Positions 4,903 through 62,895 of a stretch of DNA of 64,000 bases are shown in pieces (the first letter of the stretch is position 1; each line of letters opens with the position of its first letter). Under the pieces are notes generated by a model. That model did not search any database and was not told the origin of the DNA. It was given only the letters and a program-made list of their open reading frames with translations. A program made the translations under genes and the position numbers. The stretch is taken from contig JAIRYP010000011.1 in NCBI GenBank assembly GCA_031267755.1, positions 128,761 to 192,760 on the forward strand, in the 5' to 3' direction. Source of the DNA: Clostridiales bacterium. Its GTDB lineage: Bacteria > Bacillota > Clostridia > Monoglobales > JAIRYP01.

Positions 4903-5922
4903 ATGAAAAATGAACTTAATTTTCTACATGTCGTGCGGCTCACTCTTATTTTATTCTTTTTTATCCCATTAATTATGCACCATTTTTTTAGTTCTTCAAA
5001 AATCAATTCAAAACTTAAAAACAACAAAACTAAACAAATAACAAAAGAAATAATTTCTCCTGATAGAATAAAAGTTTACAATGTTAAAAATGACACAATC
5101 TTTGAAATTAATTTTGAAGACTATATAATTGGAGTTTTAAGCGGAGAAATGCCTGCATCATACGAACTCGAAGCGCTTAAGGCACAAGCGGTTGCGATTA
5201 GAAGTTATGTCTTAGATAAAATAATAAATTTTAATAAACAAAATTATTTATGCAAACACAACGGAGCCCATATTTGCACTGATCCCGGGCATTGCGAAGC
5301 CTATCTTTCACAAGAAGATGCTAACAACAAATGGGGTAAAGATTGGACAAAAAAATATTTTGATAAAATAATGCAAGCAGTGTTAGAAACTAAATCGGAA
5401 TATATGATATGTGAAGGAGAAGTAGTTAAAGCATTCTTTTTTGCACTAAGTGGCGGAGGAACCGAATTTGCATCAGATATCTGGGGAGGGAAAAATTATC
5501 CCTATTTAAAACCTGTTCAAAGTAAATTTGATAAAAACTCTCCAAATTTTCTTTCAGAAAAAAAACTTTCTGTAAATGATTTTAAAAAAAAATTAAAACT
5601 TTTAAGACCAGAAATTAAAGAACTTTGTGACTCAAAAATATCTTTAAACAACATCAAAAAAACAACTTACGGAAGCGTGCGTGAAATTACATTTAATAAC
5701 GAAAACTTTAAAGGAGAAGAAATTAGAAATACATTTAATCTTAGAAGCACAAATTTTGAAATTACAATAAATGATGATTGTATAACATTTTTAGTAAAAG
5801 GACATGGTCACGGAGTTGGAATGAGCCAATATGGAGCGAATTATTTGGCAAAAAACGGGAAAAATTATAAAGAAATATTAAGGTACTATTATAATGGAAT
5901 AAGTTTTTCACATTTAAACTAA
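4903..5922 (+). CDS. spoIID: stage II sporulation protein D (SpoIID/LytB-domain lytic transglycosylase)
   Basis: 339 aa with an N-terminal membrane anchor and SpoIID motifs LEALKAQAVAIRSY and GHGHGVGMSQYGANYLA. Confidence 0.85.
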   Translation: MKNELNFLHVVRLTLILFFFIPLIMHHFFSSSKINSKLKNNKTKQITKEIISPDRIKVYNVKNDTIFEINFEDYIIGVLSGEMPASYELEALKAQAVAIRSYVLDKIINFNKQNYLCKHNGAHICTDPGHCEAYLSQEDANNKWGKDWTKKYFDKIMQAVLETKSEYMICEGEVVKAFFFALSGGGTEFASDIWGGKNYPYLKPVQSKFDKNSPNFLSEKKLSVNDFKKKLKLLRPEIKELCDSKISLNNIKKTTYGSVREITFNNENFKGEEIRNTFNLRSTNFEITINDDCITFLVKGHGHGVGMSQYGANYLAKNGKNYKEILRYYYNGISFSHLN

Positions 5923-25538: not shown

Positions 25539-26816
25539 ATGAAACTTTTGATAAAAAATGGAAGAATTGTAAATCCAGCAAATAATTTAGAAGAGACATT
25601 TGATATTTTAAGCGAAAACGGAATCATAAAAAAAATTGAAAAAAATATAACGGAAAATTCAGACGTTATAATAAACGCAAAACATAAAATAGTTATTCCT
25701 GGGCTTATAGATGTTCATTCGCATTTTAGAGATCCCGGAGAAACACATAAAGAAGATATAATTTCGGGATGTAAAGCCGCCGAAACAGGCGGTTTTACTT
25801 CAATTGTGTGCATGGCAAATACAAATCCTGTAATAGATAATGAATTTGTCATAAAATACATAATTGATAAAGCAAAAAAATTTTCAAAAGTAAACATCTT
25901 TCCAGTTGCCTCAATTACCAAAGGAATGTTAGGTAATGAACTTACAGAAGTTGGAAAACTGAAAAAATTTGGCATTGTTGGAATTTCAGATGATGGTAAG
26001 CCCGTTGAAAACGCATCAATTTTGCGAAATAGCTTACTTTATTCGAAAATGTTTAATATTCCATTATTTTCGCATTGTGAACGTCTTGATATGACATCTG
26101 GCACAGTAATGAATGAAGGAATCATGGCAACAAGTTTAGGACTTATAGGTGCGCCAAATGTCTCAGAAAGTGCAGCAATAGCTGCAGATATATTAATAGC
26201 CGAATCAGTAAATTCAAAAATACACATATGCCACGTTAGTACAAAAGAATCCGTTGAAATCATTAGAATTGCTAAAAAAAAAGGAATAAAAGTAACGTGC
26301 GAAACTGCTCCACATTACTTTTCGCTCACTGATGAGATGGTGCGCGGTTATAACACAAACGCTAAAGTAAATCCACCGCTTAGAGATCACAATGACGTTT
26401 TGGAAATTATAAAAGGTTTAAGTGATGGAACAATTGATATAATTGCAAGTGACCATGCGCCTCACCACGAAGATGATAAAAACTTGCCATTTTGTATGGC
26501 AAAATGCGGTATAATTGGTCTTGAAACCTCTTTAGCAATTGGCATGACTTTTCTTGTAAAAAAAGAAAAAATAAGTCTTATGGAACTAATAAAAAAAATG
26601 ACATTGAATCCAAATAAGTTAATAAACGTTGATAGAGGTTCTATTGAAGTTGGGAAAGTTTCTGATATAACAATATTTGATGAAAAAGAAAAATGGATTG
26701 TTGATGCAAAAAAAATTAAAAGTAAATCAAAAAACTCTCCATTCATAGGTTTTGAGCTTTATGGCAAGGTAAAATATACAATCGCTGCTGGAGAAATAAT
26801 ATACAAAGACGATTAA
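25539..26816 (+). CDS. pyrC: dihydroorotase
   Basis: 425 aa with metal-binding motifs DVHSHFRDPG and ASDHAPH. Confidence 0.92.
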   Translation: MKLLIKNGRIVNPANNLEETFDILSENGIIKKIEKNITENSDVIINAKHKIVIPGLIDVHSHFRDPGETHKEDIISGCKAAETGGFTSIVCMANTNPVIDNEFVIKYIIDKAKKFSKVNIFPVASITKGMLGNELTEVGKLKKFGIVGISDDGKPVENASILRNSLLYSKMFNIPLFSHCERLDMTSGTVMNEGIMATSLGLIGAPNVSESAAIAADILIAESVNSKIHICHVSTKESVEIIRIAKKKGIKVTCETAPHYFSLTDEMVRGYNTNAKVNPPLRDHNDVLEIIKGLSDGTIDIIASDHAPHHEDDKNLPFCMAKCGIIGLETSLAIGMTFLVKKEKISLMELIKKMTLNPNKLINVDRGSIEVGKVSDITIFDEKEKWIVDAKKIKSKSKNSPFIGFELYGKVKYTIAAGEIIYKDD

Positions 26817-26858
26817 AATATTTAAAAAATATAACTATTTCATATTCAGAGGTATTTT

Positions 26859-27773
26859 GTGTCGATCGATTTAATGATTGAAAAAATTAAAGAAAAAAAT
26901 GATACACCTATTTCTGTAGGACTTGATCCAAAAATTGATTATATACCAAACGATATAAAAAACATAATATCAAAAAAATACGGTTTTGGGCCTAAATTTG
27001 CAGCAAAATGTTTGTACGAATTTAATAAAGGAATAATAGACGCAATTTATGATATTGTTCCAATCGTTAAAATACAGTCAGCTTATTATGAACTATATGG
27101 CTCAGAAGGAATTTTTACGTTTGCAGATACCATAAATTATGCTAAAATGAAGGGTTTATACGTTATCGTTGATGTAAAAAGAAATGATATTGAAGAAACA
27201 AGCGAAGCGTATGCTAACGCTTATTTAGGAAAAACAAATATAACATATAATTCAAAATTTCAAGCGTTTGGCGCAGATTCTATGACAGTTAATCCATATT
27301 TTGGTTCTGATGGAATAGTACCATTTATAAATGTTTGTAAAAAATATTCCAAAAGCATTTTTACAATAGTCAAAACTTCAAATAAATCTTCATTTGAAAT
27401 TCAAGATTTAATTTGTGAAGGCGTACCACTTTACGAAAAAATTGCACATTTTGTTTCAGAATGGGGCAAAGATTTAATTGGAAAAAATAACTACAGTAAT
27501 ATCGGTGCAGTAATCGGTGCAACACATCCAAAAGTTTTCAAAACTCTTAGAAAAATTATGAAAAAATCATATTTTTTAGTGCCAGGATGTGGAGCTCAAG
27601 GAGGGTCAGTTAAAAATATTTCAGACGCTTTTAATGAAAACGGCTTAGGTTGCATAATAAACGCATCTCGCTCTATAATCTGTGCACACATGAAAAACAA
27701 CGAAAATTATCAAAATGAAGCAAGACGCGAAACCTTAAAACTTAGTTACGATGTGAAAAAATTATTTTCATAA
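26859..27773 (+). CDS. pyrF: orotidine 5'-phosphate decarboxylase (long, type 2)
   Basis: 304 aa (GTG start) with VGLDPK, the VDVKRNDI catalytic-Lys region and VPGCGAQGG. Confidence 0.88.
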   Translation: MSIDLMIEKIKEKNDTPISVGLDPKIDYIPNDIKNIISKKYGFGPKFAAKCLYEFNKGIIDAIYDIVPIVKIQSAYYELYGSEGIFTFADTINYAKMKGLYVIVDVKRNDIEETSEAYANAYLGKTNITYNSKFQAFGADSMTVNPYFGSDGIVPFINVCKKYSKSIFTIVKTSNKSSFEIQDLICEGVPLYEKIAHFVSEWGKDLIGKNNYSNIGAVIGATHPKVFKTLRKIMKKSYFLVPGCGAQGGSVKNISDAFNENGLGCIINASRSIICAHMKNNENYQNEARRETLKLSYDVKKLFS

Positions 27774-27843
27774 TTAGACTGTTAATAAAAATAACTAAAT
27801 TAAAATTAAAAAATATAAGATTTCTGTATTAAAGAGGTATATC

Positions 27844-28608
27844 GTGCTTTATGAATTATCCAAAAAAAAAGCTATTAATGACAAAATATTTGACTTTGAA
27901 GTTGAAAGTTTTAATTCAACCGAAAATGTTAAAGCGGGACAATTTTTTTATATAGATTGTGGTGGCAAAAGTTTTTTAAGACGTCCAATAAGTATATGTG
28001 ATGTTTTAGATGGAAAATTACGATTTATTTTTGAAATTCGAGGAATTGGAACTTATGAATTATCCAAAAAAAAATGTGGTGAAAAAATCGATATTCTGGG
28101 CCCATTTGGAAAACCATTCAACACTGAATTTGGTAAAAATAAAATTTCTATATTGATAGGAGGTGGAATTGGAATTATTCCTCTTTTTAAACTTTCGAAA
28201 GAACTTGAAAAGGTTGTAGCTATACTTGGTTTTAAAACAAAAGAATCTATTTTTCTTAAAGAAGAATTTGTTTCGACATGTGATAAAGTTATTATAACGA
28301 CAGATGATGGAAGCTTTGGAAAACATGGTAACGCGTTTGAGGCACTTGAAGATACACTAGAACGTGAAGAAAACAAAAAAAATATTGGTGCGCTGTACAC
28401 TTGCGGACCTAAAAAATTAATTTATGGTGTTGCAAAATTCGGAATAACAAACAACATTAAAACACAGGTTTCAATGGAAGAACACATGGGATGTGGAATT
28501 GGTGCATGCATGGCTTGTGTGTGTGACACGACAGAAGGAAAAATGCGAGTGTGTAAAGAAGGACCAGTTTTCGATTCGAAAAAAATTTTAAACAATTTTG
28601 AAGAGTAA
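27844..28608 (+). CDS. pyrK: dihydroorotate dehydrogenase B electron-transfer subunit
   Basis: 254 aa with the FAD-binding motif RRPISICD and a C-terminal 2Fe-2S cluster motif CGIGACMACVC...CKEGPVF. Confidence 0.9.
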   Translation: MLYELSKKKAINDKIFDFEVESFNSTENVKAGQFFYIDCGGKSFLRRPISICDVLDGKLRFIFEIRGIGTYELSKKKCGEKIDILGPFGKPFNTEFGKNKISILIGGGIGIIPLFKLSKELEKVVAILGFKTKESIFLKEEFVSTCDKVIITTDDGSFGKHGNAFEALEDTLEREENKKNIGALYTCGPKKLIYGVAKFGITNNIKTQVSMEEHMGCGIGACMACVCDTTEGKMRVCKEGPVFDSKKILNNFEE

Positions 28609-28828
28609 ATAAAACTTTAAAAACTTAAACGCAACTTGAACAATAATCAAAAACACTTTATTGTTATTAACAAAATTTAATATAAAATTTTAAAGTTGAT
28701 AAAAAATAACTAATTGAAATAAGCTTTTATTTTTGAAATTTATATAATTTAATATCAATCAACAAAATAAAAAAAATTTTACAAGTAAAAATGCTATAAT
28801 TTTATGTTTAACAAAAAGGGGCATAAAT

Positions 28829-29749
28829 TTGACTCAAAAAAAAATAAATATGAAAGTGGATATTGGTGGGGTAGTCTGGAAAAACCCAGTTTCAACAGCA
28901 TCAGGCGTCTTCGGATTTGGAGAAGAATACTCAAGTTTTTTTGATATAAATGCGCTTGGAGCAATATGTTTAAAATCTCTCACGCTTAAAAAACAAGTTG
29001 GGAACGATTCTCCAAGAATTGCAGAAACTTCATCTGGAATTTTAAATAGCATCGGTCTTCAAAATCCAGGCATTGATTTTTTTATAAAACATGAACTACC
29101 AAAACTTAAAAAAATTTGCAAAACAAACATAATTGCAAGCATTGCTGGTTCGTCAATAGAAGAGTACGCAATTATTGCTGAAATGTTAGGTTCAAACGTT
29201 AATATGATTGAACTTAATATTTCATGCCCCAATGTTAAAGAAGAATGTATAACGTTTGGAATTAACTCAAAATCAGTTGAAAACATAACAAAAAAAATTA
29301 AAAAAGTGTCTAAAGTTCCTTTGATTGTCAAACTTTCTCCGAATGTTGAAAATATTTGTGATATATCAAAAGCAGCTGAATCGGGGGGGGCAGACGCACT
29401 ATCGCTTGTAAATACTTTCTTGGGTATGAAAATAGATATAAAAAATCAAAAACCTTACTTCAAAAACACCTTTGCTGGACTTTCTGGGCCAGCAATAAAA
29501 CCCATTGCACTCAGAATGGTATGGCAAGCTAGGCTTGCAACAAAACTTCCAATAATCGGACTTGGAGGAATAACATGCACAAATGATGCGTTAGAATTTC
29601 TAATGGCTGGTGCAAACGCCGTGGCAATCGGAACATATGGTTTTTTTGATCCACTCATTTGGCCCAAAATTAAAGATGGTATAGAAAAATATTTAATTGA
29701 AAATAACATAAATGACATAAAAAATATATCTTTAACAAATTCATATTAA
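28829..29749 (+). CDS. pyrD: dihydroorotate dehydrogenase B catalytic subunit
   Basis: 306 aa with WKNPVSTASG, ELNISCPNV and GLGGI. The TTG at 28829 is 7 nt after AAAGGGG. The alternative ATG at 28850 (MKVDIGG) is in frame. Confidence 0.9.
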   Translation: MTQKKINMKVDIGGVVWKNPVSTASGVFGFGEEYSSFFDINALGAICLKSLTLKKQVGNDSPRIAETSSGILNSIGLQNPGIDFFIKHELPKLKKICKTNIIASIAGSSIEEYAIIAEMLGSNVNMIELNISCPNVKEECITFGINSKSVENITKKIKKVSKVPLIVKLSPNVENICDISKAAESGGADALSLVNTFLGMKIDIKNQKPYFKNTFAGLSGPAIKPIALRMVWQARLATKLPIIGLGGITCTNDALEFLMAGANAVAIGTYGFFDPLIWPKIKDGIEKYLIENNINDIKNISLTNSY

Positions 29750-35444: not shown

Positions 35445-35683
35445 TCTCTAAGATTCCTTTGCTTAAAACAAATATGAATATTAAAACAATTATTATTATG
35501 TAGAAAAAATAAAATAATTAAAAGTATTTATTGAATTATTTTTGCTCAAAAAATCTAAATTAATGAATAAATAATTGAATTTTTTACCACACTATTACTG
35601 TAAATTAAGTCTTAGAAACTTAAATTTATATTTGTTTAAAAATTCAAATGTTAGTTTAAAACGAACGTAAGGGGATGATTAAT

Positions 35684-36229
35684 ATGAAAGCCACGGGAAT
35701 AGTGCGAAAAATTGACAATTTAGGTAGAGTTGTAATACCCAAAGAAATTAGATCAACAATGAAAATACGCGAAGGTGATCCACTCGAAATATATACAGAT
35801 AGAAATAATGAGGTAATATTTAAAAAATATTCATTGATCGGTGAGCTTGGAATCTTTGCCGAGCAATATACCGAAAGTTTAGCAAAAGTTTCGCAATTTC
35901 CAGTTTGCATAAGCGACAGAGATGTTTTAATTGCTTGCAATGGAATTTCAAACAAAAATCTGATAATAGGCAAAAGAATTTCCAAAGAAATTGAAGATTA
36001 TATAGAAACAAAAACTTTATCTATAATAAAAAAAGAAGAAAAAGTTCCGCTTTTACTTGAAGACAATCAAAAATATAAAATTGCGGCAATTGCTTCAATA
36101 ATTTTCGAAAATGAACCAATTGGATCAGTACTACTTCTTGAAAACTCAAAAAACAAAAAAGATGTTGAAGAATCAGATATGAAACTTATTGAGGTTGCTT
36201 CAATTTTTCTATCAAAGGTCGCAAATTAA
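35684..36229 (+). CDS. spoVT: stage V sporulation protein T (AbrB-type DNA-binding domain plus GAF-like domain)
   Basis: MKATGIVRKIDNLGRVVIPKEIRSTMKIREGDPLEIY is the SpoVT/AbrB swapped-hairpin domain. The length of about 181 aa fits SpoVT rather than AbrB. The ATG at 35684 is better spaced from AAGGGG than the track's ATG at 35675. Confidence 0.85.
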   Translation: MKATGIVRKIDNLGRVVIPKEIRSTMKIREGDPLEIYTDRNNEVIFKKYSLIGELGIFAEQYTESLAKVSQFPVCISDRDVLIACNGISNKNLIIGKRISKEIEDYIETKTLSIIKKEEKVPLLLEDNQKYKIAAIASIIFENEPIGSVLLLENSKNKKDVEESDMKLIEVASIFLSKVAN

Positions 36230-44126: not shown

Positions 44127-44780
44127 TCATTTTTGTAAATCTCTTTTAATATTATTAATATCATCATTTATTTCTTTATATTGCCTTAAATTCTTCTCAG
44201 CGTGATCTTCAAGTTCTCGTATCTGAGTACGTTCAAAAACTTCTTCATCAAAAATGAATCTAGCTCTACGATTTCTCCTATCTTCTTCTTCACTCAAAAT
44301 ACGTTGTTGTTCTACACGTCGAGCTTCTTGTAAAAATGAAAAAAGTTCAATACTACGTACTTTAAACTCTGCTTCTGTCACTAATTCCTTTACTCTATTC
44401 ACTAAAAATTTTTTACCATACAAAATATTACTTAAAATTAGTTTGTCACTCGCTGCAATTTCTTCTTTAAGAGAATCGGAAAAAGGTTTTTTACTTTCAT
44501 ACCTTATTTTCTCTTCTTCTAATTGTCTTTCAAGTTCTTCTATTATAGGTCTTGAAGCAAAATCTACCAACATACTAAAACTTTGTAATATTCCGTAACA
44601 ATTTCGTGCTTCAACAATATCAATATCATTTTCAAAATTCGCAAACGCAACAACATTTCCATCAGGCCCAATTCCTTGTCTATCTCCAGAAAACAACCTC
44701 AAATGAGCTGCTTCCGCATTTTCAACTGTTTGTTCATCCATATCTAAAATTCTATAACATTGAAAAAATATACCATTCAT
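44127..44780 (-). CDS. hypothetical protein, family A ([FY]F.CYRILDMD N-terminus), copy 1
   Basis: 217 aa. MNGIFFQCYRILDMDEQTVENAEAAHLRLFSG aligns with MVFFDCYRILDMDSEKVRAASEAYERLCQRV from 44858-45511. The two also share EEEDRRNRRARFIFDEE versus EEEDRINRRSRLSYDEE. It has no TM segment or signal peptide and a coiled-coil C-half. Confidence 0.7.
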   Translation of the reverse strand: MNGIFFQCYRILDMDEQTVENAEAAHLRLFSGDRQGIGPDGNVVAFANFENDIDIVEARNCYGILQSFSMLVDFASRPIIEELERQLEEEKIRYESKKPFSDSLKEEIAASDKLILSNILYGKKFLVNRVKELVTEAEFKVRSIELFSFLQEARRVEQQRILSEEEDRRNRRARFIFDEEVFERTQIRELEDHAEKNLRQYKEINDDINNIKRDLQK

Positions 44781-44857
44781 CGTTTAACCAATCCCTTCTT
44801 ATTACAAAAAATATTTTATAAATTTAAAATAATTATAATATTTATTTTTACTCAATT

Positions 44858-45511
44858 TTACTTATTTTTAAAATTATTAATATCTTGACTTAATTTTTTT
44901 TGAAGACGTAAAATTCTTTCTGAAGGAGTTTCAAACATTTTTATTTCTTTTTCTACAAGAAACTCTTCGTCATAACTAAGTCTACTTCTACGATTTATTC
45001 TATCTTCTTCTTCTCTCAAAATACTCTCTTGTTCTAAACGTTGAGCTTCTCTAGTATCATGAATAAGTTGAATAAAAGTTAATCTATTTTCCGCCTCTCG
45101 TAATTTTTCTTCTACGTCTCTAACAATAGATTTAACATTACACAAAAGATTAAGTGAAAGATAGTAATCACTTTCTGCACGCCTTTTTAAAATGGGATCT
45201 GAAAAAGTTTTACCTTCAAAACTTTGTTTTGCTAATTCCAATTCTTGTTCACGTTGTAATATTAAAGGAGCTGAGGCCATTACTACATCTGCATAAAAAT
45301 TCCGCAATGATCCAAAAATACCCCTAGCAGTATTAAGATCAATTTGATTAAAAGCTTCAGGAAAAAACTCTGGAAAAACTTCAAACTGTGTAGGATTTTC
45401 AACAGTTCCAATCGCATGAACGCGTTGACACAATCTCTCATAAGCTTCACTTGCTGCTCTGACTTTTTCTGAATCCATATCTAAAATTCTATAACAATCG
45501 AAAAAAACCAT
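44858..45511 (-). CDS. hypothetical protein, family A, copy 2
   Basis: 217 aa, collinear with 44127-44780 over its full length, with a GAGGAG RBS upstream. Confidence 0.7.
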   Translation of the reverse strand: MVFFDCYRILDMDSEKVRAASEAYERLCQRVHAIGTVENPTQFEVFPEFFPEAFNQIDLNTARGIFGSLRNFYADVVMASAPLILQREQELELAKQSFEGKTFSDPILKRRAESDYYLSLNLLCNVKSIVRDVEEKLREAENRLTFIQLIHDTREAQRLEQESILREEEDRINRRSRLSYDEEFLVEKEIKMFETPSERILRLQKKLSQDINNFKNK

Positions 45512-45558
45512 ATTTAATCTCTCCTCTTTTTTTAATATAAAAAATATTCTACAAACTT

Positions 45559-45588
45559 ATTATAACACAATAACTTGAAAAAAATCAA
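45559..45588 (-). promoter_or_regulatory. sigma-A-type promoter candidate with extended -10 upstream of 44858-45511
   Basis: Read on the minus strand: TTGATT (45583-45588), an 18-nt spacer, then TGTTATAAT with TATAAT at 45559-45564. That is about 45 nt upstream of the start codon. The same leader sequence recurs upstream of the gene remnant at about 46585-46655. Confidence 0.35.
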
Positions 45589-45667
45589 ACATTTTAAATT
45601 TTTACGCCAAACAATGAAATCTCCACACATCATATATTTCTCATAATTATTATTGTTTACTCAATCT

Positions 45668-46249
45668 TCATTTGCCTAACTGTAATTTAAGATTTTCAAT
45701 ATCTTTATTTAAACTTGTTAATAAATGTGAAGCTCTTTCGTTGAGTCCTTCAAATTCTTTTATATTGCCTACAAAAAAATGCTCATCATAAACATCAACA
45801 ATAATTCTTTCATTTTCCGTATTTTCCCGAACTGTTACAAAAAAATTTACATCTTGATGAAATTCATCATTAATTTGACTAACCATCAATTCAAATTGCG
45901 CTAATTGCAAAACTTGCTTAATGATATCAATACACAAATCAATATTAAGTAAATTAAGTTCTATAGATATTCTATCTTCAGAATCTATATCTGTTCCCTC
46001 TAAATCAGTCTGAAGCTGTTCAGACATAGCTATTGATGTTGAAAATACTAAATTTCCGAAATCTTCTAATGTTTGGCAACAACGTTCCGCAGTAGCCACA
46101 TCAACTCCAACTATAGCATGATCTACAAAAAAACTTCCATCATTGTCTATTGAAACTCTACCACTACATAATGTTCGAAAAGCTTCATCAGCTCTTTCAA
46201 TCGTCTCCAAATCTAAATTCAACTTATCATGAAAATAAATAAAATTCAC
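45668..46249 (-). CDS. hypothetical protein, family A, divergent copy 3
   Basis: 193 aa. MNFIYFHDKLNLDLETIERADEAFRTLCSG aligns with the N-termini of the other two copies. The C-terminal NKDIENLKLQLGK parallels DINNIKRDLQK. It lacks the RRNRR block. Confidence 0.65.
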   Translation of the reverse strand: MNFIYFHDKLNLDLETIERADEAFRTLCSGRVSIDNDGSFFVDHAIVGVDVATAERCCQTLEDFGNLVFSTSIAMSEQLQTDLEGTDIDSEDRISIELNLLNIDLCIDIIKQVLQLAQFELMVSQINDEFHQDVNFFVTVRENTENERIIVDVYDEHFFVGNIKEFEGLNERASHLLTSLNKDIENLKLQLGK

Positions 46250-51425: not shown

Positions 51426-52184
51426 TTAATCATCAAAATTAACAAAACTTAAAAATTTTTTCGTTCTTTCTTCTTTTGGATTTTGAAATATACTATCTGG
51501 CGAACCTTCTTCAATTATGCGTCCACCATCCATAAATAATATACGATTTGCAACATCTCGTGCAAATCTCATCTCATGAGTTACTATAATAATAGTCATA
51601 CTAGAAAGAGCAAGTTCTTTTATAACCTCCAAAACTTCTACAACCATTTCAGGATCAAGAGCACTTGTCGGTTCATCAAAAAGCATAACTCCAGGATTCA
51701 TCGCAAGCGCCCTAGCAATTGCAACACGCTGCTGCTGACCGCCCGAAAGCTGTTTAGGATAGCTATCTGCTTTATCAGCAAGCCCAACTCTTTTCAAAAG
51801 CTCATAAGCTTTACTTTCAGCCTCTTCTTTAGACATAATTTTTAAATCTACTGGCGCAAGCATTATATTTTTTTTCACTGTAATATGAGGAAACAAATTG
51901 AATTGTTGGAAAACCATTCCAATATTTCTTCGCAATTTATCAATATTTTTGTCTTTTTTAAGCTCATTTTTATCAATAAAAACTTCACCACTATCTGGCT
52001 GTTCAAGTAAATTTAAACATCTTAAAAAAGTAGATTTTCCAGATCCAGACGGACCTATAATACCAACTACTTCTCCCTCAGTAACATCAAGACTAATTCC
52101 CTTTAAAATTTTCAAATCCCCAAAACTTTTATATAAATTTTTAACACTGACTTTTATTAACACGATTATAATTCCTTTCCGCAA
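51426..52184 (-). CDS. polar amino acid ABC transporter ATP-binding protein (GlnQ-like)
   Basis: Walker [10 protein letters not shown], signature [15 protein letters not shown] and Walker [12 protein letters not shown]. The track start is a TTG that overlaps the permease gene. A GTG at 52163 ([15 protein letters not shown]) is a likelier start. Confidence 0.9.
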
Positions 52185-52836
52185 CCATCGAAATCTGAGT
52201 TAAAATAGTTACAATGATTAAATAAAAAATCGCAACAACCGTCCAAGTAGAAAACGATTCCATCGTCCTACCAATATAAATTTTTGCCTCATAAATAATT
52301 TCTCCAAGACTTATCACTGAAACAATTGATGTATCTTTTAAACTTATTATAAACTGATTTACAAGTGAAGGAATTGAAATTCTTATTGCTTGAGGAAGAA
52401 CAACTCGTATCAAAGAGCGCCACTTTGAAAACCCAAGACTACGAGCCGCCTCCGTTTGACCAACATCGACCGCCAAAACTCCTCCACGAAAAATTTCCGA
52501 AATGTATGCGCCCGCATTAAGCCCAAGTGTAATAATTGAAGCAGTAAAAACTGATATCCTAAAGTTTATTCCAAAATGTTGAATAAGCTGTGGAATAGCA
52601 AAATAAATATAAAATACCTGAACTATAAGTGGAGTTCCACGTATTATCCAAACATAAACATCAGACAAAAAAGAAAAAATTTTAATACACGATAAATGTG
52701 CTAAGCATGATAATAAACCCAAAAATATTGCAATAATAAGAGCTATAAAAGTTGTTTGCATCGTAATACCAAAACCCTTCAATAAAAAAGGAAAAGCTTC
52801 ATTCAAAACTTTAATTATATTCATAAACTTCTCCAA
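52141..52836 (-). CDS. polar amino acid ABC transporter permease
   Basis: 231 aa, multi-TM, with the EAA loop [24 protein letters not shown]. The start may be the internal Met at 52824. Confidence 0.88.
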
Positions 52837-53608
52837 ACCTTTTTACATATTTATTTATAATTCGTTCATATTCCCCGTTTTGAATGATGTTATCAAGACC
52901 ATTATTAAACATATTTAAAAGCTCCTGATTTTTCTCCTTAAGCACTACAAAACCATAACAAAATTCGGAATTAGAACTTAAAACAATTTTAAGTCCATTA
53001 TTCTGTGAAATTCCATATTCAAGAACTGTTTGATCTTCAAAACACGCAACAGAATTTCCAGTTTTTATCTCATCATACATAATAGGAGTTTCATCAAAAT
53101 AATTTGTCGTAAATCCAATCTTATCTTTCAACGATTCAGCAAATAATGCAGCCTGAGTTCCGGTTTTAAGAGCAATCTTTTTTCCCCTTAAATCTTCAAA
53201 AGTTTTTATCCCATTTTCTTCTTTTTTTACTGCAACGCAAACATTCGTTTTATAATAACCCTTAGAAAAATCATACTTAATTCTTCTTTCATCAGTTATT
53301 ATTACACCAGCCATCATTCCATCCGCTTGGCTTGACTCAAGCGCAGTAATCGCACTATTAAAACCAAGGCCTTTAAATTTATATTTAAATTTTTGATCCT
53401 TTGCTATCTCTTCGAAAATCTCAATGTCAATTCCCACATCTTTACCCTTGGCATTTTTAAACTCGAAAGGCGCATAATCAATATCTGTTGCAATTACAAA
53501 TATCTTTTCTCTTGTGTTAACGTTTTCGCATCCTGCGAACAATAACGCTACTCCACAAAACAAAATTGCAAGATGCAATTTTATTTTTATTTTTCCCAAA
53601 CTTAACAC
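52811..53608 (-). CDS. polar amino acid ABC transporter substrate-binding lipoprotein
   Basis: 265 aa with the lipobox LLFAGC and a family-3 SBP pattern (DYAPFEF, GLGFNSAITALESSQADGMMAGV). Confidence 0.85.
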   Translation of the reverse strand: MLSLGKIKIKLHLAILFCGVALLFAGCENVNTREKIFVIATDIDYAPFEFKNAKGKDVGIDIEIFEEIAKDQKFKYKFKGLGFNSAITALESSQADGMMAGVIITDERRIKYDFSKGYYKTNVCVAVKKEENGIKTFEDLRGKKIALKTGTQAALFAESLKDKIGFTTNYFDETPIMYDEIKTGNSVACFEDQTVLEYGISQNNGLKIVLSSNSEFCYGFVVLKEKNQELLNMFNNGLDNIIQNGEYERIINKYVKRFGEVYEYN

Positions 53609-53659
53609 CTCAAAAACACATAAAATAATATTTTAGATATCAAAATTTCAAAAACAATA

Positions 53660-54484
53660 TTAATAAACTCCAACTACATTATCTGCCTCTACTAAATCTC
53701 CATAAATTGGATACAAGGTTTTTTCGTAATCTTCATAAAAAAATTTTTCTTCTCTAAGTTTTTTTATTTCATCGTCCAACCAACTTAATAGATCGTGATC
53801 GCTTTTTCTTACAGCTGGAGCGATAAAACTTTCGCTTCCAAATGAGTCAACAGAAACCGAAAAATCATCATTCCCATTAACCCATGCGTATAGTATGGTG
53901 TTATCGTGTGACATTGCATCCCCTCTTCCATTGGCTAAAGCATTAAAGGCTTCAGTATTTTGATCAAATTTTAAAAGTTTTATTTCCGGGTGATTTGTTG
54001 CAAAAAATACTTCGGCTGTTGTACCTTTATTTACAATCAATGTTTTTCCATTTAATTCTTCAATATTTGAAATTGGAAATTTTTTTGGAGAAGCAATGCC
54101 TAAACGAACTTTCATATATGGTTTACTAAAATTAACAACCTTTTCTCTATCTTTAGTAATTGTAAAATTGGCAAGAGTTACATCAACCTTTCCGGACAAA
54201 AGATAACTAACGCGATTTGCAGCTTCCATTGGTACAAACTCAAGTTTACTTTCATCGCCCAATAAGTCTTTAGCAATTCTTTTAGCCAAAAAAACATCAT
54301 ACCCTTGATTTTCACCATTCGTATCAATATAACCAAAAGGAAACTTATCTATAAAAACTCCGATCTTAATTTTACCACGTTCTTTTATTTCATCTAACAA
54401 ATTTTTCTCTGAACTGCAGCCAAAAATTGTTAGACCTAATAAAATAGCAGCGCAAAATAAAAATATTTTCTTAAACTTTTTCAT
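53660..54484 (-). CDS. polar amino acid ABC transporter substrate-binding lipoprotein (second system)
   Basis: 274 aa with the lipobox LTIFGC and a family-3 SBP pattern (FPFGYID, GKVDVTLANFTIT.DR). Confidence 0.85.
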   Translation of the reverse strand: MKKFKKIFLFCAAILLGLTIFGCSSEKNLLDEIKERGKIKIGVFIDKFPFGYIDTNGENQGYDVFLAKRIAKDLLGDESKLEFVPMEAANRVSYLLSGKVDVTLANFTITKDREKVVNFSKPYMKVRLGIASPKKFPISNIEELNGKTLIVNKGTTAEVFFATNHPEIKLLKFDQNTEAFNALANGRGDAMSHDNTILYAWVNGNDDFSVSVDSFGSESFIAPAVRKSDHDLLSWLDDEIKKLREEKFFYEDYEKTLYPIYGDLVEADNVVGVY

Positions 54485-54678: not shown

Positions 54679-55452
54679 TTAATCTGACTTTTCATTTTTA
54701 TGAGATTTAAATTCGAAAATATCCAAAAATCTTTTTGCTTTTTCAGTCTCAGGATTATTAAAAAAATTTGAATTATTTTCTAAAATTTCTCCATCATCCA
54801 AAAATAAAACACGATCATTTATAGCTTTTGCAAACGGCATTTCATGAGTCACAATAATCATTGTGGTACCCTTTTCAGCAAGTTCAAAAATAAGTTCCAA
54901 AACCTCTCTGCTCATTTCAGGATCAAGTGAAGCTGTAACTTCATCAAACAAAAGTATTTCAGGTTCCATAATAAGCGCTCTAGCTATTGCAACTCTTTGT
55001 TTCTGGCCGCCAGACAACTGATGAGGAAAAAAATCACCTCGATTCAATAAACCAACACGCTCCAAGAGTTTCCTTGAATTTTCAAGTACTTCACTTTTGT
55101 TTTTTTTCTGAACTAAAATAGGACCTAAACTAATATTTTCAAAAACATTCATGTGCGGAAATAAATCATAATTCTGAAAAACCATTCCAATTTTTTGACG
55201 CACAAGCTCCCATTTTGTTTTAGAAGTTGTAATAACCTCGCCATTAAATTTAATTGTTCCTGATTCAATGTTTTCAAAACCATTTATACATCTTAAGATT
55301 GTGCTTTTTCCTGAACCGCTTGGTCCTAAAATAACTAAAACTTCACCTTTGTGAATATCAAAAGATATATTCTTAAGTATATGCAACCCATTAAAACTTT
55401 TATGCAAATTAAAAATCTCTAATATAATTTTTTTACACATTAAAAATCTCAC
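54679..55452 (-). CDS. polar amino acid ABC transporter ATP-binding protein (second system)
   Basis: 257 aa with [24 protein letters not shown] and LLFDEVTASLD. Confidence 0.9.
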   Translation of the reverse strand: MRFLMCKKIILEIFNLHKSFNGLHILKNISFDIHKGEVLVILGPSGSGKSTILRCINGFENIESGTIKFNGEVITTSKTKWELVRQKIGMVFQNYDLFPHMNVFENISLGPILVQKKNKSEVLENSRKLLERVGLLNRGDFFPHQLSGGQKQRVAIARALIMEPEILLFDEVTASLDPEMSREVLELIFELAEKGTTMIIVTHEMPFAKAINDRVLFLDDGEILENNSNFFNNPETEKAKRFLDIFEFKSHKNEKSD

Positions 55453-55529
55453 TTCTTAACTTCTTTTATATTAAACATATGCCATAGATAATAAAAACAT
55501 TTTTAAATTATTTTCAAAAAATTCTAAAA

Positions 55530-56213
55530 TTAAATTTTAAACTTATTTTCAAAAAATTTTGCAAAACAAGACACTGTTTGACATGCTACAAAAAAAAGAG
55601 CAAATATAAATCCATATACAAAAAATGGTGCTTTTGGATTTTTAAATACATTGTATTCTATAATCTGTTGACCAACTTTCAAAACCTCTATAACACCAAT
55701 CAAAGTAACAATAGAAGTTGTTTTTATCATTCTAACAATTAAATTAATTGCATTTGGTAAAACCATTCTCATAATCTGAGGCATTATTATTTTTTTATAC
55801 AATTGTTTGTATGTAAAACCAATTGCGAGCCCGCTTTCATACTGATGTTTTGGCAACGCTTCCATACTGCTGAGTATAATATCAGAAAATTCAAAAGTTC
55901 CCCAAACGAAAAACACTATAATTGACACCGCCGTACCACTTAATCCTCCGTTTTTACCTGAAAGTTTAAAATAAAATAAAAAGAGCCAGGCAAAAATCGG
56001 AATTATTCTAACAATTTCGAGAAAAATTTTAAAAACAATGCGAAATATCTTTCTTTTAGAAACTATAAAACCAAACAAAATACCAAAAAATATGGATAAA
56101 AGAACAGAAACCAAAGATATATACAAATTAACACAAAATGCCCTAAGCAATCTTTTAAACCCTACGGCTTCTTGAACAAAAAAATCCAAAACTCCAATAC
56201 TTAAAATATTCAC
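55530..56213 (-). CDS. polar amino acid ABC transporter permease (second system)
   Basis: 227 aa, multi-TM, with the EAA-like loop QYESGLAIGFTYKQLYKKIIMPQ. Confidence 0.85.
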   Translation of the reverse strand: MNILSIGVLDFFVQEAVGFKRLLRAFCVNLYISLVSVLLSIFFGILFGFIVSKRKIFRIVFKIFLEIVRIIPIFAWLFLFYFKLSGKNGGLSGTAVSIIVFFVWGTFEFSDIILSSMEALPKHQYESGLAIGFTYKQLYKKIIMPQIMRMVLPNAINLIVRMIKTTSIVTLIGVIEVLKVGQQIIEYNVFKNPKAPFFVYGFIFALFFVACQTVSCFAKFFENKFKI

Positions 56214-56324
56214 ATTCTTTCTTGCCTCCCAAAAAATTATACTAGAAAAACAAAAAATATTTATAATTTAAATAATTAATATTTCCTCTGTAAACAAAAA
56301 TTATATGATTTTAATTTCAAATAA

Positions 56325-57029
56325 TCAAAATAAAATTTTATTATCTATGTATTTAATTTTTTCTTTCAAAAACGTAAACAACAAAACAAATGGCAAAATA
56401 ATTACAACATACGAAACAATAAGCATAAACAACGCTTCATTTGTACAATAATACATGCCAATTACATCTTTTGTTACAAACATGACATCAGCAAGTGCCA
56501 CAATACCTGCAACACTTGTCTCTTTAATTAAAAACACAATAACTCCAGCTATAAGCGGCATCGACAATACAATTGCTTGAGGCAAAATAATGTGGCAAAT
56601 TAATTGCCAATTGTTGAGACCAATGCTCAATCCAGATTCAATTTGAGTTTTTTTAATGGAATCAAACCCACCCTTAACGGCCTCACACATATAACTTCCA
56701 CCCAAAAACGAAAGACCAAACAACGCACAATTAAACGAACTAAGGCGCACCCCAAATAATGGTAAACTAAAATAAAGAAAAAATAATTGAATTGTAAGAG
56801 GTGTATTTCTTGAAATCTCTACATAAAATTTAATAATCCATGAAACTATTGGAATCTTCATATAACTTATTGCACTACAAACTATTCCCAAAAACAATGA
56901 AATCATAATAGCGCACAAAGAAAGTTTTAAAGTTAAAAAAATCGATTCTTTGTAAATGGGAATAAGTTTCATAATCAAAACAAAATCCATAAAAACCACC
57001 ACAAAAAACATAAAATTTAAATTAATCAA
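56325..57029 (-). CDS. polar amino acid ABC transporter permease (second system)
   Basis: 234 aa, multi-TM, with the EAA-like loop QIESGLSIGLNNWQLICHIILPQA. Confidence 0.85.
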   Translation of the reverse strand: MINLNFMFFVVVFMDFVLIMKLIPIYKESIFLTLKLSLCAIMISLFLGIVCSAISYMKIPIVSWIIKFYVEISRNTPLTIQLFFLYFSLPLFGVRLSSFNCALFGLSFLGGSYMCEAVKGGFDSIKKTQIESGLSIGLNNWQLICHIILPQAIVLSMPLIAGVIVFLIKETSVAGIVALADVMFVTKDVIGMYYCTNEALFMLIVSYVVIILPFVLLFTFLKEKIKYIDNKILF

Positions 57030-57126
57030 CGCTTTTAAAACTAATATTTTTCAAAATAATTTCGTTTTCGAACAACTTACTATTTTAGTTAATATCTTAT
57101 CACATTAATTATTAAATCATATCTTT

Positions 57127-58680
57127 TTATGCACATTTCTCCTCCAAAGCCTTTTCCTCAAGCTTTTTAACTACTGAAGGATTTATTTTAACAACCGAAA
57201 CAGTCCAAAGAACCACAACAATTAAAGACGCTGCCATTATAATTCTCATATTAATTGGAGTTGTAATTTTAGAACCAGGTGCAACAAAATTTGTAAGAAT
57301 CACAATTAAAGTTGAAGCACCACTTTTACCAAGCCTGCTCCCAACAACTTCAACTGCTGCTTGGCTTTTAAGCTTTGCATCAGAATCCAAAGGAAGATAA
57401 GCCATATTTTTAGTAGAATCAAACATGGAATATTTAACTCCCTTTATGCAGCCAACCTGATATGCGCCTACCCACACACAAGCATTTAATAAACTTTGTC
57501 CAAATATCAAAATATTCTCTGCAGCATGTTCTTTATAAATCATAATAATAAAAAGTAATATAGCACCAAGACCTGTGAATAAAGGCGTTATTAAAGCCGT
57601 CGTTCTCCACTTGCAACTTTTTAATATATTTGTCCCAACAATCATCAAAAGAATCGTTAAAATTCCAACTCTTTTGGAATAACCACCCATAAATGCATTA
57701 TATTCATTGCTTCCCGGATATTGAACTCTAACTTGACTTTTCCAAATTTGTTCAATAAGAACAGTCGACATTCCATAAGAAAACACAAGAGCCGCAATAA
57801 GAAGCACATAAACATCAGTACAAACATACTTCAAACCACTCATAACTCCCATTTTAGGTTTTTTCTTCTTCTTTTTATTTTTATTTCCTTCGCATGAATA
57901 AAATTTTGGATCACCTAATACATTTTTTTGCATCCAGGCATATATAAACATTATAGAAATTCCAAAAAATATTACAAAAGACATCTGCCATTTTAAATTT
58001 TGTCCAAATGCAATAACCTGATTTGCTCCGACTTGATCAGCAGCTTTTTTTGACAATCTTTCAACAAATTCACCAGAAGCTATAAGACCAAAATTCCCAA
58101 TCATTCCAAACAAACTATAAAATCTTGGAGCTTCACTTGTCTTTGTAATTTCATTTGCAAACTGCCAATAAAGAAGTCCAATAACTGCTGTTCCCCAAAG
58201 TTCAGCAATAACATAAGCGAGCGTTATCGTCCAATTTGTAAAACACGGAATAATCCAATAAAGCCACGGGAATTTCTGCCTTAAATTTGTTATCGTTTCA
58301 ATCGAAGCGTGTAAATATTTAATATTGGGAAATAAAACAAAACCAAAGAGTGCATAAAAAATTACAAAAAACGTTAACACTCCATAAAACATTTGTTGAG
58401 ACGAAAATTTATTCGACATTTTCATAAAAACCGCCATAAATGCAAACGAAATCGGTAAAACAAACCATGTTTTAAGAGCTGAAAGCATTTCAGAACCGCC
58501 ACCAGTTGCACACGTTTGCACCAATGTATCCTTCAAATCTCTACATAATGTGTATATAAAAAGAATGCAAATCATCATAATGCCCATAGGCAAAAACTTC
58601 TTAAGTTCAAAATTGTGTATCGGCCACAAAACAGAACGTATCTTACCGAATTTAGGTTTACCAACCTCTTTATCGCTCAT
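57127..58680 (-). CDS. tlc: ATP/ADP translocase (nucleotide transporter, Tlc/NTT family)
   Basis: 517 aa with about 12 hydrophobic segments. Long collinear matches to the Rickettsia/Chlamydia Tlc sequence as I remember it include FGKIRSVLWPIHNFELKKFLPMGIMM, AELWGTAVIGLLYWQFANEITKTSEAPRFYSLFG and GVKYSMFDSTKNMAYLPLDSDAKLKSQAAVEVVGSRLGKSG. Confidence 0.9.
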   Translation of the reverse strand: MSDKEVGKPKFGKIRSVLWPIHNFELKKFLPMGIMMICILFIYTLCRDLKDTLVQTCATGGGSEMLSALKTWFVLPISFAFMAVFMKMSNKFSSQQMFYGVLTFFVIFYALFGFVLFPNIKYLHASIETITNLRQKFPWLYWIIPCFTNWTITLAYVIAELWGTAVIGLLYWQFANEITKTSEAPRFYSLFGMIGNFGLIASGEFVERLSKKAADQVGANQVIAFGQNLKWQMSFVIFFGISIMFIYAWMQKNVLGDPKFYSCEGNKNKKKKKKPKMGVMSGLKYVCTDVYVLLIAALVFSYGMSTVLIEQIWKSQVRVQYPGSNEYNAFMGGYSKRVGILTILLMIVGTNILKSCKWRTTALITPLFTGLGAILLFIIMIYKEHAAENILIFGQSLLNACVWVGAYQVGCIKGVKYSMFDSTKNMAYLPLDSDAKLKSQAAVEVVGSRLGKSGASTLIVILTNFVAPGSKITTPINMRIIMAASLIVVVLWTVSVVKINPSVVKKLEEKALEEKCA

Positions 58681-59194
58681 AAAATACTTACCTCCCTCAA
58701 ATACTTCAAATACATTTTGTTATATATATTCTCCAAAAAAACGAAAAATATAAATATAAATAATACACAAAGACTAATCTCATAATTTCATTTTTTCCAA
58801 CAAACACTTCCGCCTCTCACTCGCATTCTTGCAAAACACAAACAGCGTAAGTATATCATAACTAATAAAATATTTTCTAAAAAATAAAACATTTACAATG
58901 TCATCTTTCAACTGTTCGTATAATTCAAACAAAAATCGTATTAAAAATTAAAGAAATAACTAAGCATAACCCACTTCTTATATCATAAATGTTTTTGATA
59001 TTAATCGTTATTTTCCTTCATTTTGTAAGTAAATTATTAAAAAAATATGCAAATATTAAAAAAGTGTGTCAAATAAAAATAAATTTAAAATTAACTAAGA
59101 AAAAATATTTTTGCTAAAATTTAACTTTGCAAAAATTTTTGTAATAAATTAGCATCAATATTAGTTATAATACAAAAATAATTTAATAACTATT

Positions 59195-59222
59195 TTGACA
59201 TTTTTAAAAATCATGTTATTCT
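59195..59222 (+). promoter_or_regulatory. sigma-A-type promoter candidate for rpsO-pnp
   Basis: TTGACA (59195-59200), a 16-nt spacer, then TATTCT (59217-59222), preceded by TGT as an extended -10. It sits about 120 nt upstream of rpsO, leaving room for an S15 autoregulatory leader. Confidence 0.35.
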
Positions 59223-59340
59223 GTTCATTCGGAGATTTGTTTTTAAAAAATTAAATAAAAATCGACTTTTTAGTATTACAAATCAATTGCGATGAAAAAA
59301 TATAATAGAGACAAAAATACAAATTAAAAGGAAATGAAAA

Positions 59341-59604
59341 ATGATTAAAGAAGCAAAAAGTAAAATAATTAAAAATTATGCAATACATCAAAGTGATACG
59401 GGCTCTCCGGAAGTGCAGATTGCAATTTTAACCTTTCGAATAAATGAGCTTAACGAACATCTTAAAATTCATAAAAAAGATTTTCATTCAAGAAGAGGGC
59501 TTTTAAAAATGGTCGGTTCAAGAAGAAATCTTCTCAATTATCTTCATGATAAAAATTTTGAAAGATATCATTCACTAATTGAAAGACTCGGCCTCAGGCA
59601 TTAA
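59341..59604 (+). CDS. rpsO: 30S ribosomal protein S15
   Basis: 87 aa with [50 protein letters not shown]. Confidence 0.95.
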
Positions 59605-62181: not shown

Positions 62182-62895
62182 GTGTTAGTGATAAAAATTA
62201 AAAACATTTACCTATATACCATTATTATTGCTTTTTTGACATCAGGCATATTATTATTCAGCTTTAAAAATAAAATTGCTACGGTTTTTTCAACGTCAAT
62301 CACAAATAAAGTTATAATTATAGATGCTGGACATGGTGGTGTTGATTCTGGCGCAATTTCAAACGATGCCATTGAAAAAGAATTAAATCTTCAAATAGCA
62401 ACCAAATTGCAAGCCTTCCTAGAAGAAGGCGGTGCAACTGTCGTTTTAACACGAAACGAAGATAAATCATTACAAAATCCTAATAGGAACAAAAAAATAT
62501 CCGCTAAAAAATCAGATTTACTCGAAAGAAAAAGAATTATGGATGAATCAAACGCTGATATATTTGTAAGCATACACATGAACAAGTATATTAATTCTTG
62601 CTATAAAGGCAGCCAAGTGTTTTATTCAAACAATGCAAATAGCAAAATCCTTGGTGAAACAATTCAAACATCACTTGCCGAAACTTTCAAAGATAACAAT
62701 AATAGAAAATCAAAACAATTAACTGAAGGGGTGTTTTTGCTAAAAAAAGCAACAATTCCTTCTGTGATAGTCGAATGCGGCTTTCTATCTAATCCAGATG
62801 AAGCAAAAAAATTAAAAAACGAAATTTATCAAAGAAAAATTGCATGGGCAATCAATCTTGGCATTATGAACTATTTCTTAAATTTTAAAAAATAA
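62182..62895 (+). CDS. cwlD: germination-specific N-acetylmuramoyl-L-alanine amidase CwlD
   Basis: 237 aa (GTG start) with an N-terminal TM and the Amidase_3 motifs IIDAGHGGVDSGA, LTRNED, ADIFVSIHMN and VECGFLSNPDE. Confidence 0.85.
   Translation: MLVIKIKNIYLYTIIIAFLTSGILLFSFKNKIATVFSTSITNKVIIIDAGHGGVDSGAISNDAIEKELNLQIATKLQAFLEEGGATVVLTRNEDKSLQNPNRNKKISAKKSDLLERKRIMDESNADIFVSIHMNKYINSCYKGSQVFYSNNANSKILGETIQTSLAETFKDNNNRKSKQLTEGVFLLKKATIPSVIVECGFLSNPDEAKKLKNEIYQRKIAWAINLGIMNYFLNFKK

Follow-up and report, generated by a model that had tools for sequence, protein, structure and literature searches.

The acquisition of a nucleotide transporter of the NTT/Tlc family is regarded as a key step in the passage from a free-living microbe to an obligate energy parasite, as in the Rickettsiales, the Chlamydiae and the Microsporidia. 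Since 2023 the same argument has been made for one clostridial family, the Acutalibacteraceae (PMC10579323). Its best-studied members in this respect, Ca. Improbicoccus and Ca. Paraimprobicoccus, are endospore-forming cocci that live inside termite-gut flagellates (Takahashi et al. 2023, PMC10579323). Their genomes of 1.0-1.3 Mb (27.5-33% GC) encode neither a net ATP-generating pathway nor purine synthesis; two of the three keep UMP synthesis, and the ATP/ADP translocase is transcribed. Together with 23 gut metagenome-assembled genomes (MAGs), they form a "small genome clade", whose ancestor was inferred to have gained the translocase, possibly from Alphaproteobacteria; possible use of the translocase for other nucleotides is also mentioned (PMC10579323). 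In a 2025 preprint this clade has grown to 41 genomes, and the Acutalibacteraceae are said to be the one Bacillota family in which life inside host cells has been demonstrated; a small-genome clade of Ruminococcaceae is mentioned as well, the translocase being reported just for an Acutalibacteraceae member. An earlier survey had counted NTTs from one member of the Clostridia and five of the Bacilli (Major et al. 2017, PMC5381601). Here we describe an NTT/Tlc gene in a 64,000-nucleotide stretch of DNA (hereafter the window) from a termite-gut MAG labelled Clostridiales bacterium and reported to belong to the order Monoglobales (contig JAIRYP010000011.1, positions 128,761 to 192,760). A first-pass annotation, made from the sequence alone, had considered such a gene unexpected in a spore-former, but a clostridial NTT had been counted in 2017 (PMC5381601), endospore-forming Clostridia with ATP/ADP translocases were described in 2023 (PMC10579323), and GenBank entry MDR1391971.1 already names this protein as an NTP/NDP exchange transporter. 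Putative energy-parasite Clostridia have been known since 2023, and what is new here is the reported order, Monoglobales, and an NTT subclade that stands apart from the published one.

The gene (57127..58680, minus strand) is an intact open reading frame (ORF) of 517 codons with an ATG start, and the borders and length given in the first-pass annotation agree exactly with the ORF listing. The protein matches the Pfam family PF03219 (TLC) with an E-value of 6e-151 and 504 bits, where the cutoff is 21, and this match spans positions 5-488 of the 491-position profile. With the NCBIfam family TIGR00769, "NTP/NDP exchange transporter", it scores 421.9 bits, the curated threshold being 387.2; the match to the NTT/TLC family (TC 2.A.12) is therefore full-length and above threshold. 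It is collinear with the NTT1 of Chlamydia pneumoniae (CpNTT1; PDB 9j3n, E 4e-116) over residues 9-504 of the window protein, and matches the Arabidopsis plastid NTT1 (AtNTT1; PDB 9j3j, E 6e-92) over its full length. The earlier assignment to the ATP/ADP translocase family, with collinearity to the Chlamydia and plastid transporters, is thus borne out by both profiles and both structures, and the sequence blocks quoted in its support are present: AELWGT at residues 159-164, WQFANEITKTSEAPRFY at 172-188 and GVKYSMFDSTKNMAYLPLDSDAKLKSQAAVEVVGSRLGKSG at 414-454. About 100 alignment columns are invariant over the 13 members of the clade formed by the window NTT and its relatives. An identical protein is already in GenBank under the name "MAG: NTP/NDP exchange transporter [Clostridiales bacterium]" (MDR1391971.1), and this name is correct.

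The fold was modelled with AlphaFold2 from the 13-sequence clade alignment (pLDDT 79.4, pTM 0.83). The model shows twelve long helices, a short C-terminal helix and a disordered, lysine-rich central loop (residues 262-276). When it was compared with the PDB by Foldseek, the top five matches were all ATP/ADP translocator NTT1 structures (CpNTT1 and AtNTT1), with E-values of 5e-25 to 3e-19 and TM scores of 0.82-0.89, in both ATP-bound and ADP/Pi-bound states. Generic transporters of the major facilitator superfamily (MFS) came next (E about 3e-6), more than 13 orders of magnitude weaker than the NTT1 matches. Model and structure search thus agree on the 12-helix, MFS-like fold of the solved NTTs, and the window protein possesses the full set of sequence and fold features of the family.

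Charged residues of AtNTT1 reportedly matter for transport and counter-exchange, according to the mutagenesis by Trentmann and colleagues in 2000; the transmembrane residues in question are reported to be K155, E245, E385 and K527. Only one offset (84) sets K, E, E and K at these positions on the 9j3j chain. The window residues K70, E160, E310 and K452, in helices 2, 4, 7 and 11 of the model, align with them, and none of the four varies among the 13 aligned clade members. Takahashi et al. likewise took the charged transmembrane AtNTT1 residues studied by Trentmann et al. 2000 as their test of translocase function (PMC10579323).

Among the best 120 database matches, the window NTT and 12 proteins labelled as Clostridia or Oscillospiraceae group together at 100% bootstrap; the best non-clostridial matches (42-48% identity) are Tlc/NTT proteins of Holosporales and other Alphaproteobacteria/Rickettsiales. 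A scan of GTDB genomes with the single window protein as query gave no match, and a scan of the GTDB species genomes with the clade alignment gave 72 NTT loci. All 60 clostridial NTTs in a joint tree of 193 sequences make up a single clade with 91% support (80% after Dayhoff-6 recoding), and the Holosporales and Rickettsiales NTTs branch outside it. The phylogeny proposed in the first-pass annotation consequently leaves the window protein in a clostridial clade of the canonical NTT family, and not in another MFS-like family. Compositional attraction was considered as a cause of the clostridial clade and rejected, since the groups do not differ in their FYMINK and GARP fractions and the recoding leaves the clade in place. 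Some of the Holosporales NTTs (about 47% identity; P0016, MDR1476445.1) come from MAGs whose accessions fall in the MDR series of the window protein, so that termite guts may harbour both the clostridial NTT and potential alphaproteobacterial relatives of it.

The clostridial NTTs divide into two groups. Tier A (15 sequences, 100% support) includes the window NTT, termite MAGs, "Clostridia bacterium PG1894_198" with two copies, and sequences from goat, cattle and pig guts. Its sister, tier B (45 sequences, 99% support), comprises human, Hadza and ruminant MAGs in two paralogous subgroups that are 36-43% identical to the window NTT. No genome carries both tiers. Because tier B includes MGYG-HGUT-04496 and the genus CAKSSR01, which belong to the Acutalibacteraceae, to the published clade or to both, we infer that it is the published Acutalibacteraceae NTT lineage; a mapping onto the type I and type II of that paper is tentative. 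With respect to the published "Clostridia ATP/ADP translocase I", the window NTT lies in a 100% subclade that is sister to the NTTs of the Acutalibacteraceae MAGs, in a tree that contains no Improbicoccus or type II references. Within tier A, the sister of the window NTT (94-97% bootstrap) is a protein from the lower-termite gut metagenomes of Waidele et al. 2019; its samples, SAMN10573998 and SAMN10574002, fall inside the range deposited by those authors.

Many clostridial genomes carry two NTT paralogues. Those of tier B occur in two subclades, either as tandem pairs (L016, L017, L019) or at two loci (L023/L027, L024/L025, L028/L067, L057/L078), and the two tier A copies of PG1894_198 (L011/L013) are 70% identical. 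By analogy with Rickettsia and Protochlamydia, these paralogues hint at a diversification of substrates.

The window belongs to the MAG Gsp477_bin49 (GCA_031267755.1), in which the NTT contig, which also encodes the window SecA and DnaG, measures 257,603 bp. The assembly totals 894,313 bp in 15 contigs with 28.5% GC, has a CheckM completeness of 60.6% with a contamination of 0, originates from the gut of Glyptotermes sp., and is placed by GTDB in Clostridia; Monoglobales; family WRAG01, with the genus unassigned (Mies et al. 2024, PMC11481507). Small clostridial symbiont genomes are under-scored by standard marker sets (PMC10579323). Glyptotermes is a lower termite genus of the Kalotermitidae with a flagellate-bearing gut. 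The GC content of the window (about 28%) is in line with that of the MAG, and the genome falls within the size (about 0.9-1.4 Mb) and GC (27-39%) ranges of the small genome clade. It is placed in Monoglobales/WRAG01 rather than inside that clade of Acutalibacteraceae, and is absent from Table S11 of Takahashi et al. In 5.8 billion proteins, identity to the window DnaG (DNA primase, 2740-4518, minus strand) reaches 42% at most; by this marker, the organism represents a very deep or very fast-evolving lineage, essentially without sequenced close relatives. SecA is too conserved to serve as an organismal marker, with hundreds of Clostridia at about 60% identity. None of the three top SecA matches shows synteny with the window, and the SecA match P0159 and the tier A NTT P0123 share no sample.

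The closest relatives of the window NTT in tier A belong to tiny genomes of the Ruminococcaceae genus RGIG1955. Three termite MAGs are assigned to this genus by Mies et al. 2024 (PMC11481507): Gx481_bin185 (736 kb in 7 contigs), Gsp477_bin88 (874 kb) and, in the table of that paper, Ncb351_bin1 (772 kb). The first two have tier A NTTs, as does the goat MAG RGIG1955 (GCA_017414435.1), from which the genus takes its name and which does not appear in Table S11 of Takahashi et al. In seven RGIG1955-type genomes, from termite to goat, cattle and pig, the NTT follows rplM-rpsI-rpsU and a HAD phosphatase gene, and the conservation of this order across hosts argues for vertical descent within the group. 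The same order (rpsU being variable) was seen at loci L001/L007, L005, L008-L012 and L081-L088. The linkage is missing both at the window NTT and at its sister. The identity between the window NTT and those of the RGIG1955 group is 56-62%, a closeness like that of the NTTs of two termite MAGs of RGIG1955 to each other (62.8%). The window MAG and one of the RGIG1955 MAGs, Gsp477_bin88, were both recovered from termite sample Gsp477. No paper describing the NTTs of these RGIG1955-type genomes of 0.7-0.9 Mb was found in the searchable literature.

The grouping of the window NTT with those of RGIG1955, despite its GTDB order being Monoglobales, suggests that the gene was passed laterally between clostridial symbiont lineages in a shared gut and that the window NTT probably came from another clostridial symbiont, a direction that we infer. 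Alternatively, GTDB-Tk may have misplaced a fast-evolving, AT-rich, reduced genome, in which case no transfer of the NTT between orders would have taken place.

The composition of the gene is that of its surroundings. Its GC (0.334, z 1.27) and GC3 (0.253, z 1.36) are both above the mean of the 51 window genes, and its codon-usage distance ranks 27th of 51, so that the comparison of GC and codon usage called for in the first-pass annotation finds it typical of the window. Compared with clostridial relatives, the window NTT is 58-61% identical, and the LigA, IF3 and L20 proteins of the same genomes are 49%, 51% and 68% identical, respectively. Because GC, GC3 and codon usage are typical, the identity lies within the housekeeping range and the flanking genes are clostridial, the window NTT gene is old in its lineage, ameliorated and compositionally native. 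Recent horizontal transfer or contamination as its origin is ruled out by the composition, the clostridial flanking genes and the CheckM contamination of 0.

Taken together, we think it likely that the window encodes a functional NTT in a genome-reduced clostridium, probably an ATP/ADP exchanger feeding on a eukaryotic (probably gut-protist) host, and belonging to a laterally passed clostridial NTT lineage. Substrate, exchange mode, intracellular location and reliance on imported ATP are attributed to it by analogy with characterised relatives. The protein would be a 12-helix transporter of the cell membrane, working as an alternating-access antiporter like the NTT1 proteins of C. pneumoniae and Arabidopsis. 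External ATP would be taken up against internal ADP and phosphate, so that the bacterium could draw energy, and possibly purine nucleotides, from the cytoplasm of a eukaryotic host, probably a gut protist, and spores would carry it between hosts. The import of host-derived nucleotides or energy that had been proposed in the first-pass annotation fits the published clostridial model (PMC10579323) and a genome of about 0.9 Mb and 28.5% GC from a flagellate-bearing termite gut, and is retained as a proposal; we also uphold its warning that the sequence does not reveal substrate specificity.

Several points weigh against this interpretation. We know of no transport assay for any clostridial NTT, and the characterised NTTs vary in substrate (ATP/ADP, all NTPs, UTP, GTP or NAD+). 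NTT genes are also found in free-living bacteria (PMC5381601), and no eukaryote-like effector domain of Pfam was significant among the 14 unannotated ORFs of the window. The view of the genome is that of the 64-kb window, about 7% of the assembly. The placement of the organism is reported from the published GTDB-Tk table and was not reproduced by the DnaG and SecA trees: in the former the deep nodes have bootstrap values below 25% and the tree is unresolved, and in the latter the window falls in an 11-sequence clade at 100% that is otherwise uninformative on its lineage. The NTT trees were built by neighbour-joining with bootstrap, not by maximum likelihood, and lack the sequences of Ca. Improbicoccus, the Dependentiae and most Chlamydiae.

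The alternative that survives best accepts a functional NTT and assigns it to the supply of nucleic acid precursors (through broad NTP/NDP exchange or proton-coupled import of purine NTPs) or to the import of a cofactor such as NAD+, rather than to energy exchange; we judge it unlikely, with a real chance of being right. Non-energy import of nucleotides or cofactors is the role of NTT2-5 in Protochlamydia and of Tlc4/5 in Rickettsia, and the substrate range of the family as a whole is wide. The identity of the window protein to the ATP-bound structure is just 39-45%, and the pyrimidine steps kept in the window would make purine supply the possible main need. Use for other nucleotides is also noted for the published relatives, which are without purine synthesis (PMC10579323). 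On the other hand, the nearest characterised and solved relatives are ATP/ADP exchangers, and all four counter-exchange residues of AtNTT1 are kept. The window holds one NTT gene, and organisms with a single NTT would usually keep the ATP/ADP type.

An extracellular organism, living in the gut lumen or as an ectosymbiont and scavenging nucleotides from lysed cells with its NTT, is improbable in our estimation. Free ATP is scarce outside cells, and the assembly of 0.89 Mb and 28.5% GC with zero contamination also speaks against this account. Moreover, the protein belongs to the canonical clade of parasite and plastid NTTs, and not to the multidomain clades of free-living bacteria, in which NTTs are otherwise broadly distributed (PMC5381601). 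The full sporulation toolkit would speak for life outside a host, as would the window's lack of eukaryote-like effector domains in Pfam; the published intracellular relatives, however, also form endospores inside protists (PMC10579323). Finally, an assembly or binning artefact, by which an NTT of Holosporales or Rickettsiales was mis-joined to a clostridial contig, has a negligible probability: MAGs of Holosporales with NTTs of about 47% identity do occur in the same MDR series (P0016, MDR1476445.1), but the gene sits inside 64 contiguous kb of the 257,603-bp contig, between clostridial ABC genes and rpsO-pnp-cwlD-SASP, it does not stand out from the window in GC, GC3 or codon usage, and every one of its nearest relatives (52-61%) lies on a clostridial contig beside clostridial ribosomal-protein genes. 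Contiguity, composition and the contigs of the clostridial relatives effectively refute mis-assembly as the origin of the gene.

Features of the NTT locus and of its sporulation and pyrimidine context, with window coordinates (SASP, small acid-soluble spore protein; AF2, AlphaFold2)
Feature	Coordinates	Strand	Evidence
NTT/Tlc nucleotide transporter gene, 517 aa	57127..58680	-	ORF, PF03219, TIGR00769, 9j3n/9j3j, AF2
Shine-Dalgarno sequence GAGGGAGG, strong	58691..58698	-	10 nt upstream of ATG; read from sequence
AT-rich divergent intergenic region, 660 bp, NTT gene / rpsO	58681..59340	.	sequence
Polar amino-acid ABC importer no. 2, two permeases and ATPase	54679..57029	-	Pfam BPD_transp_1 x2, ABC_tran
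Polar amino-acid ABC importer no. 1, two solute-binding proteins, permease and ATPase	51426..54484	-	Pfam SBP_bac_3 x2, BPD_transp_1, ABC_tran
spoIID	4903..5922	+	TIGR02870 equivalog, 336 bits vs 234.75; PF08486
spoVT, sporulation regulator	35675..36229	+	PF15714 SpoVT_C, 103.8 bits; TIGR02851 best match, 183.8, below cutoff 235.9
cwlD-like germination amidase	62182..62895	+	PF01520, 162 bits; TIGR02883 best match, 213.4, below cutoff 221.55
alpha/beta-type SASP, 60 aa	63002..63184	+	PF00269, 37.9 bits vs cutoff 22
pyrC-pyrF-pyrK-pyrD	25539..29749	+	Pfam and NCBIfam

Downstream of the NTT gene, ABC importer no. 2 begins 97 nt past the stop codon on the same strand, and the two may be co-transcribed. 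With both amino-acid ABC importers, the NTT gene forms a 7.3-kb importer block on one strand; together with an ECF-T component, these make up the importers of the window. On its other side lie rpsO-pnp-cwlD-SASP. The intergenic region between the NTT gene and rpsO is very AT-rich and unusually long, given a coding density of about 88%, and presumably holds both promoters. The 11 promoter-like matches around the NTT gene do not exceed the 13.5 expected by chance, the same scan detected no terminator-like site in 56900-59400, and Rfam identified no family in the intergenic region and only a tRNA in the whole window.

The spoIID, spoVT, cwlD and SASP genes named in the first-pass annotation are all real, SpoIID scoring above its equivalog cutoff and SpoVT and CwlD just under theirs; endospore formation is accordingly indicated at the level of these four genes. 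The pyrimidine genes cited there as context are likewise real, as four steps present in the window, and the complete de novo pathway is not demonstrated by them. PyrC (428 vs 279 bits), PyrF (256 vs 110.6) and PyrD (401 vs 269) exceed their NCBIfam cutoffs, and PyrK is the best match at 185.6 bits, below a cutoff of 219. Part of de novo UMP synthesis is thus kept in this genome.

About a quarter of the window (approximately 16.5 kb, in 19493-25499, 33243-35444, 36358-42199 and 44127-46249) is occupied by 14 ORFs without a significant Pfam domain, for which relaxed Pfam searches also gave no significant match. Most of them fall in three local paralogue families: the first consists of proteins of 642 and 707 aa on either side of a 631-aa ORF, the second of 419, 394, 235 and 399 aa, and the third of 217, 217 and 193 aa. 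The 419- and 394-aa proteins each have a single N-terminal hydrophobic segment. These ORFs possibly encode lineage-specific surface or effector proteins. The 399-aa ORF (37712-38911, minus strand), whose product has an N-terminus rich in Ala, Gly, Glu and Arg, has a GC content of 0.40, 3.6 standard deviations above the window genes, with a normal GC3, and may be a more recent acquisition.

The NAD-dependent DNA ligase (17619-19385, plus strand; 588 aa) ends after the HhH domain and contains no BRCT domain, which is present in the 679-aa LigA of the genome that carries the NTT sister (L003); this looks like a domain loss typical of reduced genomes. As listed, the infC ORF (16507-16941, plus strand; 144 aa) begins at position 29 of the IF3 N-terminal domain profile, and the true start is probably an upstream codon other than ATG, GTG or TTG, as is usual for infC. 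The GC skew of the window follows gene orientation very closely but unevenly, at about -0.3 to -0.4 in the minus-strand blocks (1-4.5 kb and 33-59 kb) and only about +0.1 in the plus-strand blocks, which suggests a replication-strand skew on top of the coding-strand bias.

If the GTDB placement is true, the same NTT lineage stands at the start of genome reduction in a second clostridial order, and the Ruminococcaceae of 0.7-0.9 Mb from termites, ruminants and pigs represent a third, undescribed set of NTT carriers. We tentatively entertain, at somewhat less than even chances, a broader proposal: energy parasitism would have arisen at least three times in Clostridia (Acutalibacteraceae, Ruminococcaceae RGIG1955 and Monoglobales WRAG01), through one clostridial NTT lineage passed laterally among termite-gut symbionts, possibly in the same protist host, and not through separate captures from Proteobacteria or Chlamydiae. 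The NTT would then be a transferable "starter gene", and the present MAG the first case outside the Oscillospirales. Should the GTDB placement hold, the lifestyle would have emerged convergently through intra-clostridial gene transfer, gut Clostridia would offer a natural system for studying the repeatability of parasitism and its spread by transfer among co-resident symbionts, and tiny clostridial gut MAGs would be probable protist parasites rather than fermenters. The biology of the window itself is largely explained by existing work, to which the present analysis adds the source genome, a distinct NTT subclade and a different reported order.

Like the small genome clade (Ca. Improbicoccus pseudotrichonymphae, Ca. 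I. devescovinae and Ca. Paraimprobicoccus trichonymphae), the window MAG carries a transporter of this family and is an endospore-forming member of the Clostridia from an animal gut, here that of a termite, with a genome of about 1 Mb, a GC content within 27-39% and partial UMP synthesis. The two differ in that the small genome clade belongs to Oscillospirales/Acutalibacteraceae and the window MAG is reported as Monoglobales/WRAG01, and the NTTs of the small genome clade MAGs (tier B) are only 36-43% identical to that of the window; intracellularity and the loss of ATP-generating pathways were shown in the former, whereas the window MAG is known here from 64 kb of sequence. The RGIG1955 NTTs are the nearest to the window NTT (in a shared 100% subclade), and their genomes are equally tiny (0.74-0.87 Mb). 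RGIG1955 belongs, however, to a different GTDB order, and its NTT gene follows rplM-rpsI-rpsU-HAD, whereas that of the window lies between an ABC importer and rpsO. CpNTT1 (Npt1; 9j3n, 9j3o), which was solved in an ATP-bound, inward-open state, is a single-domain, 12-helix protein like the window NTT (TM 0.82-0.86); it is 39-45% identical, comes from a Gram-negative obligate intracellular pathogen, and is the only one of the two whose function has been demonstrated. AtNTT1 (9j3j, 9j3l, 9j3m) is similar in fold (TM 0.82-0.89), and its K155, E245, E385 and K527 are conserved in the window NTT; it is 34-37% identical and, unlike the window NTT, carries a transit peptide and resides in the inner envelope of an organelle. 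The Tlc/NTT proteins of Holosporales and Rickettsiales, finally, lie outside the clostridial clade and provide its best non-clostridial matches, which fits the alphaproteobacterial source suggested for the clostridial translocase (PMC10579323).

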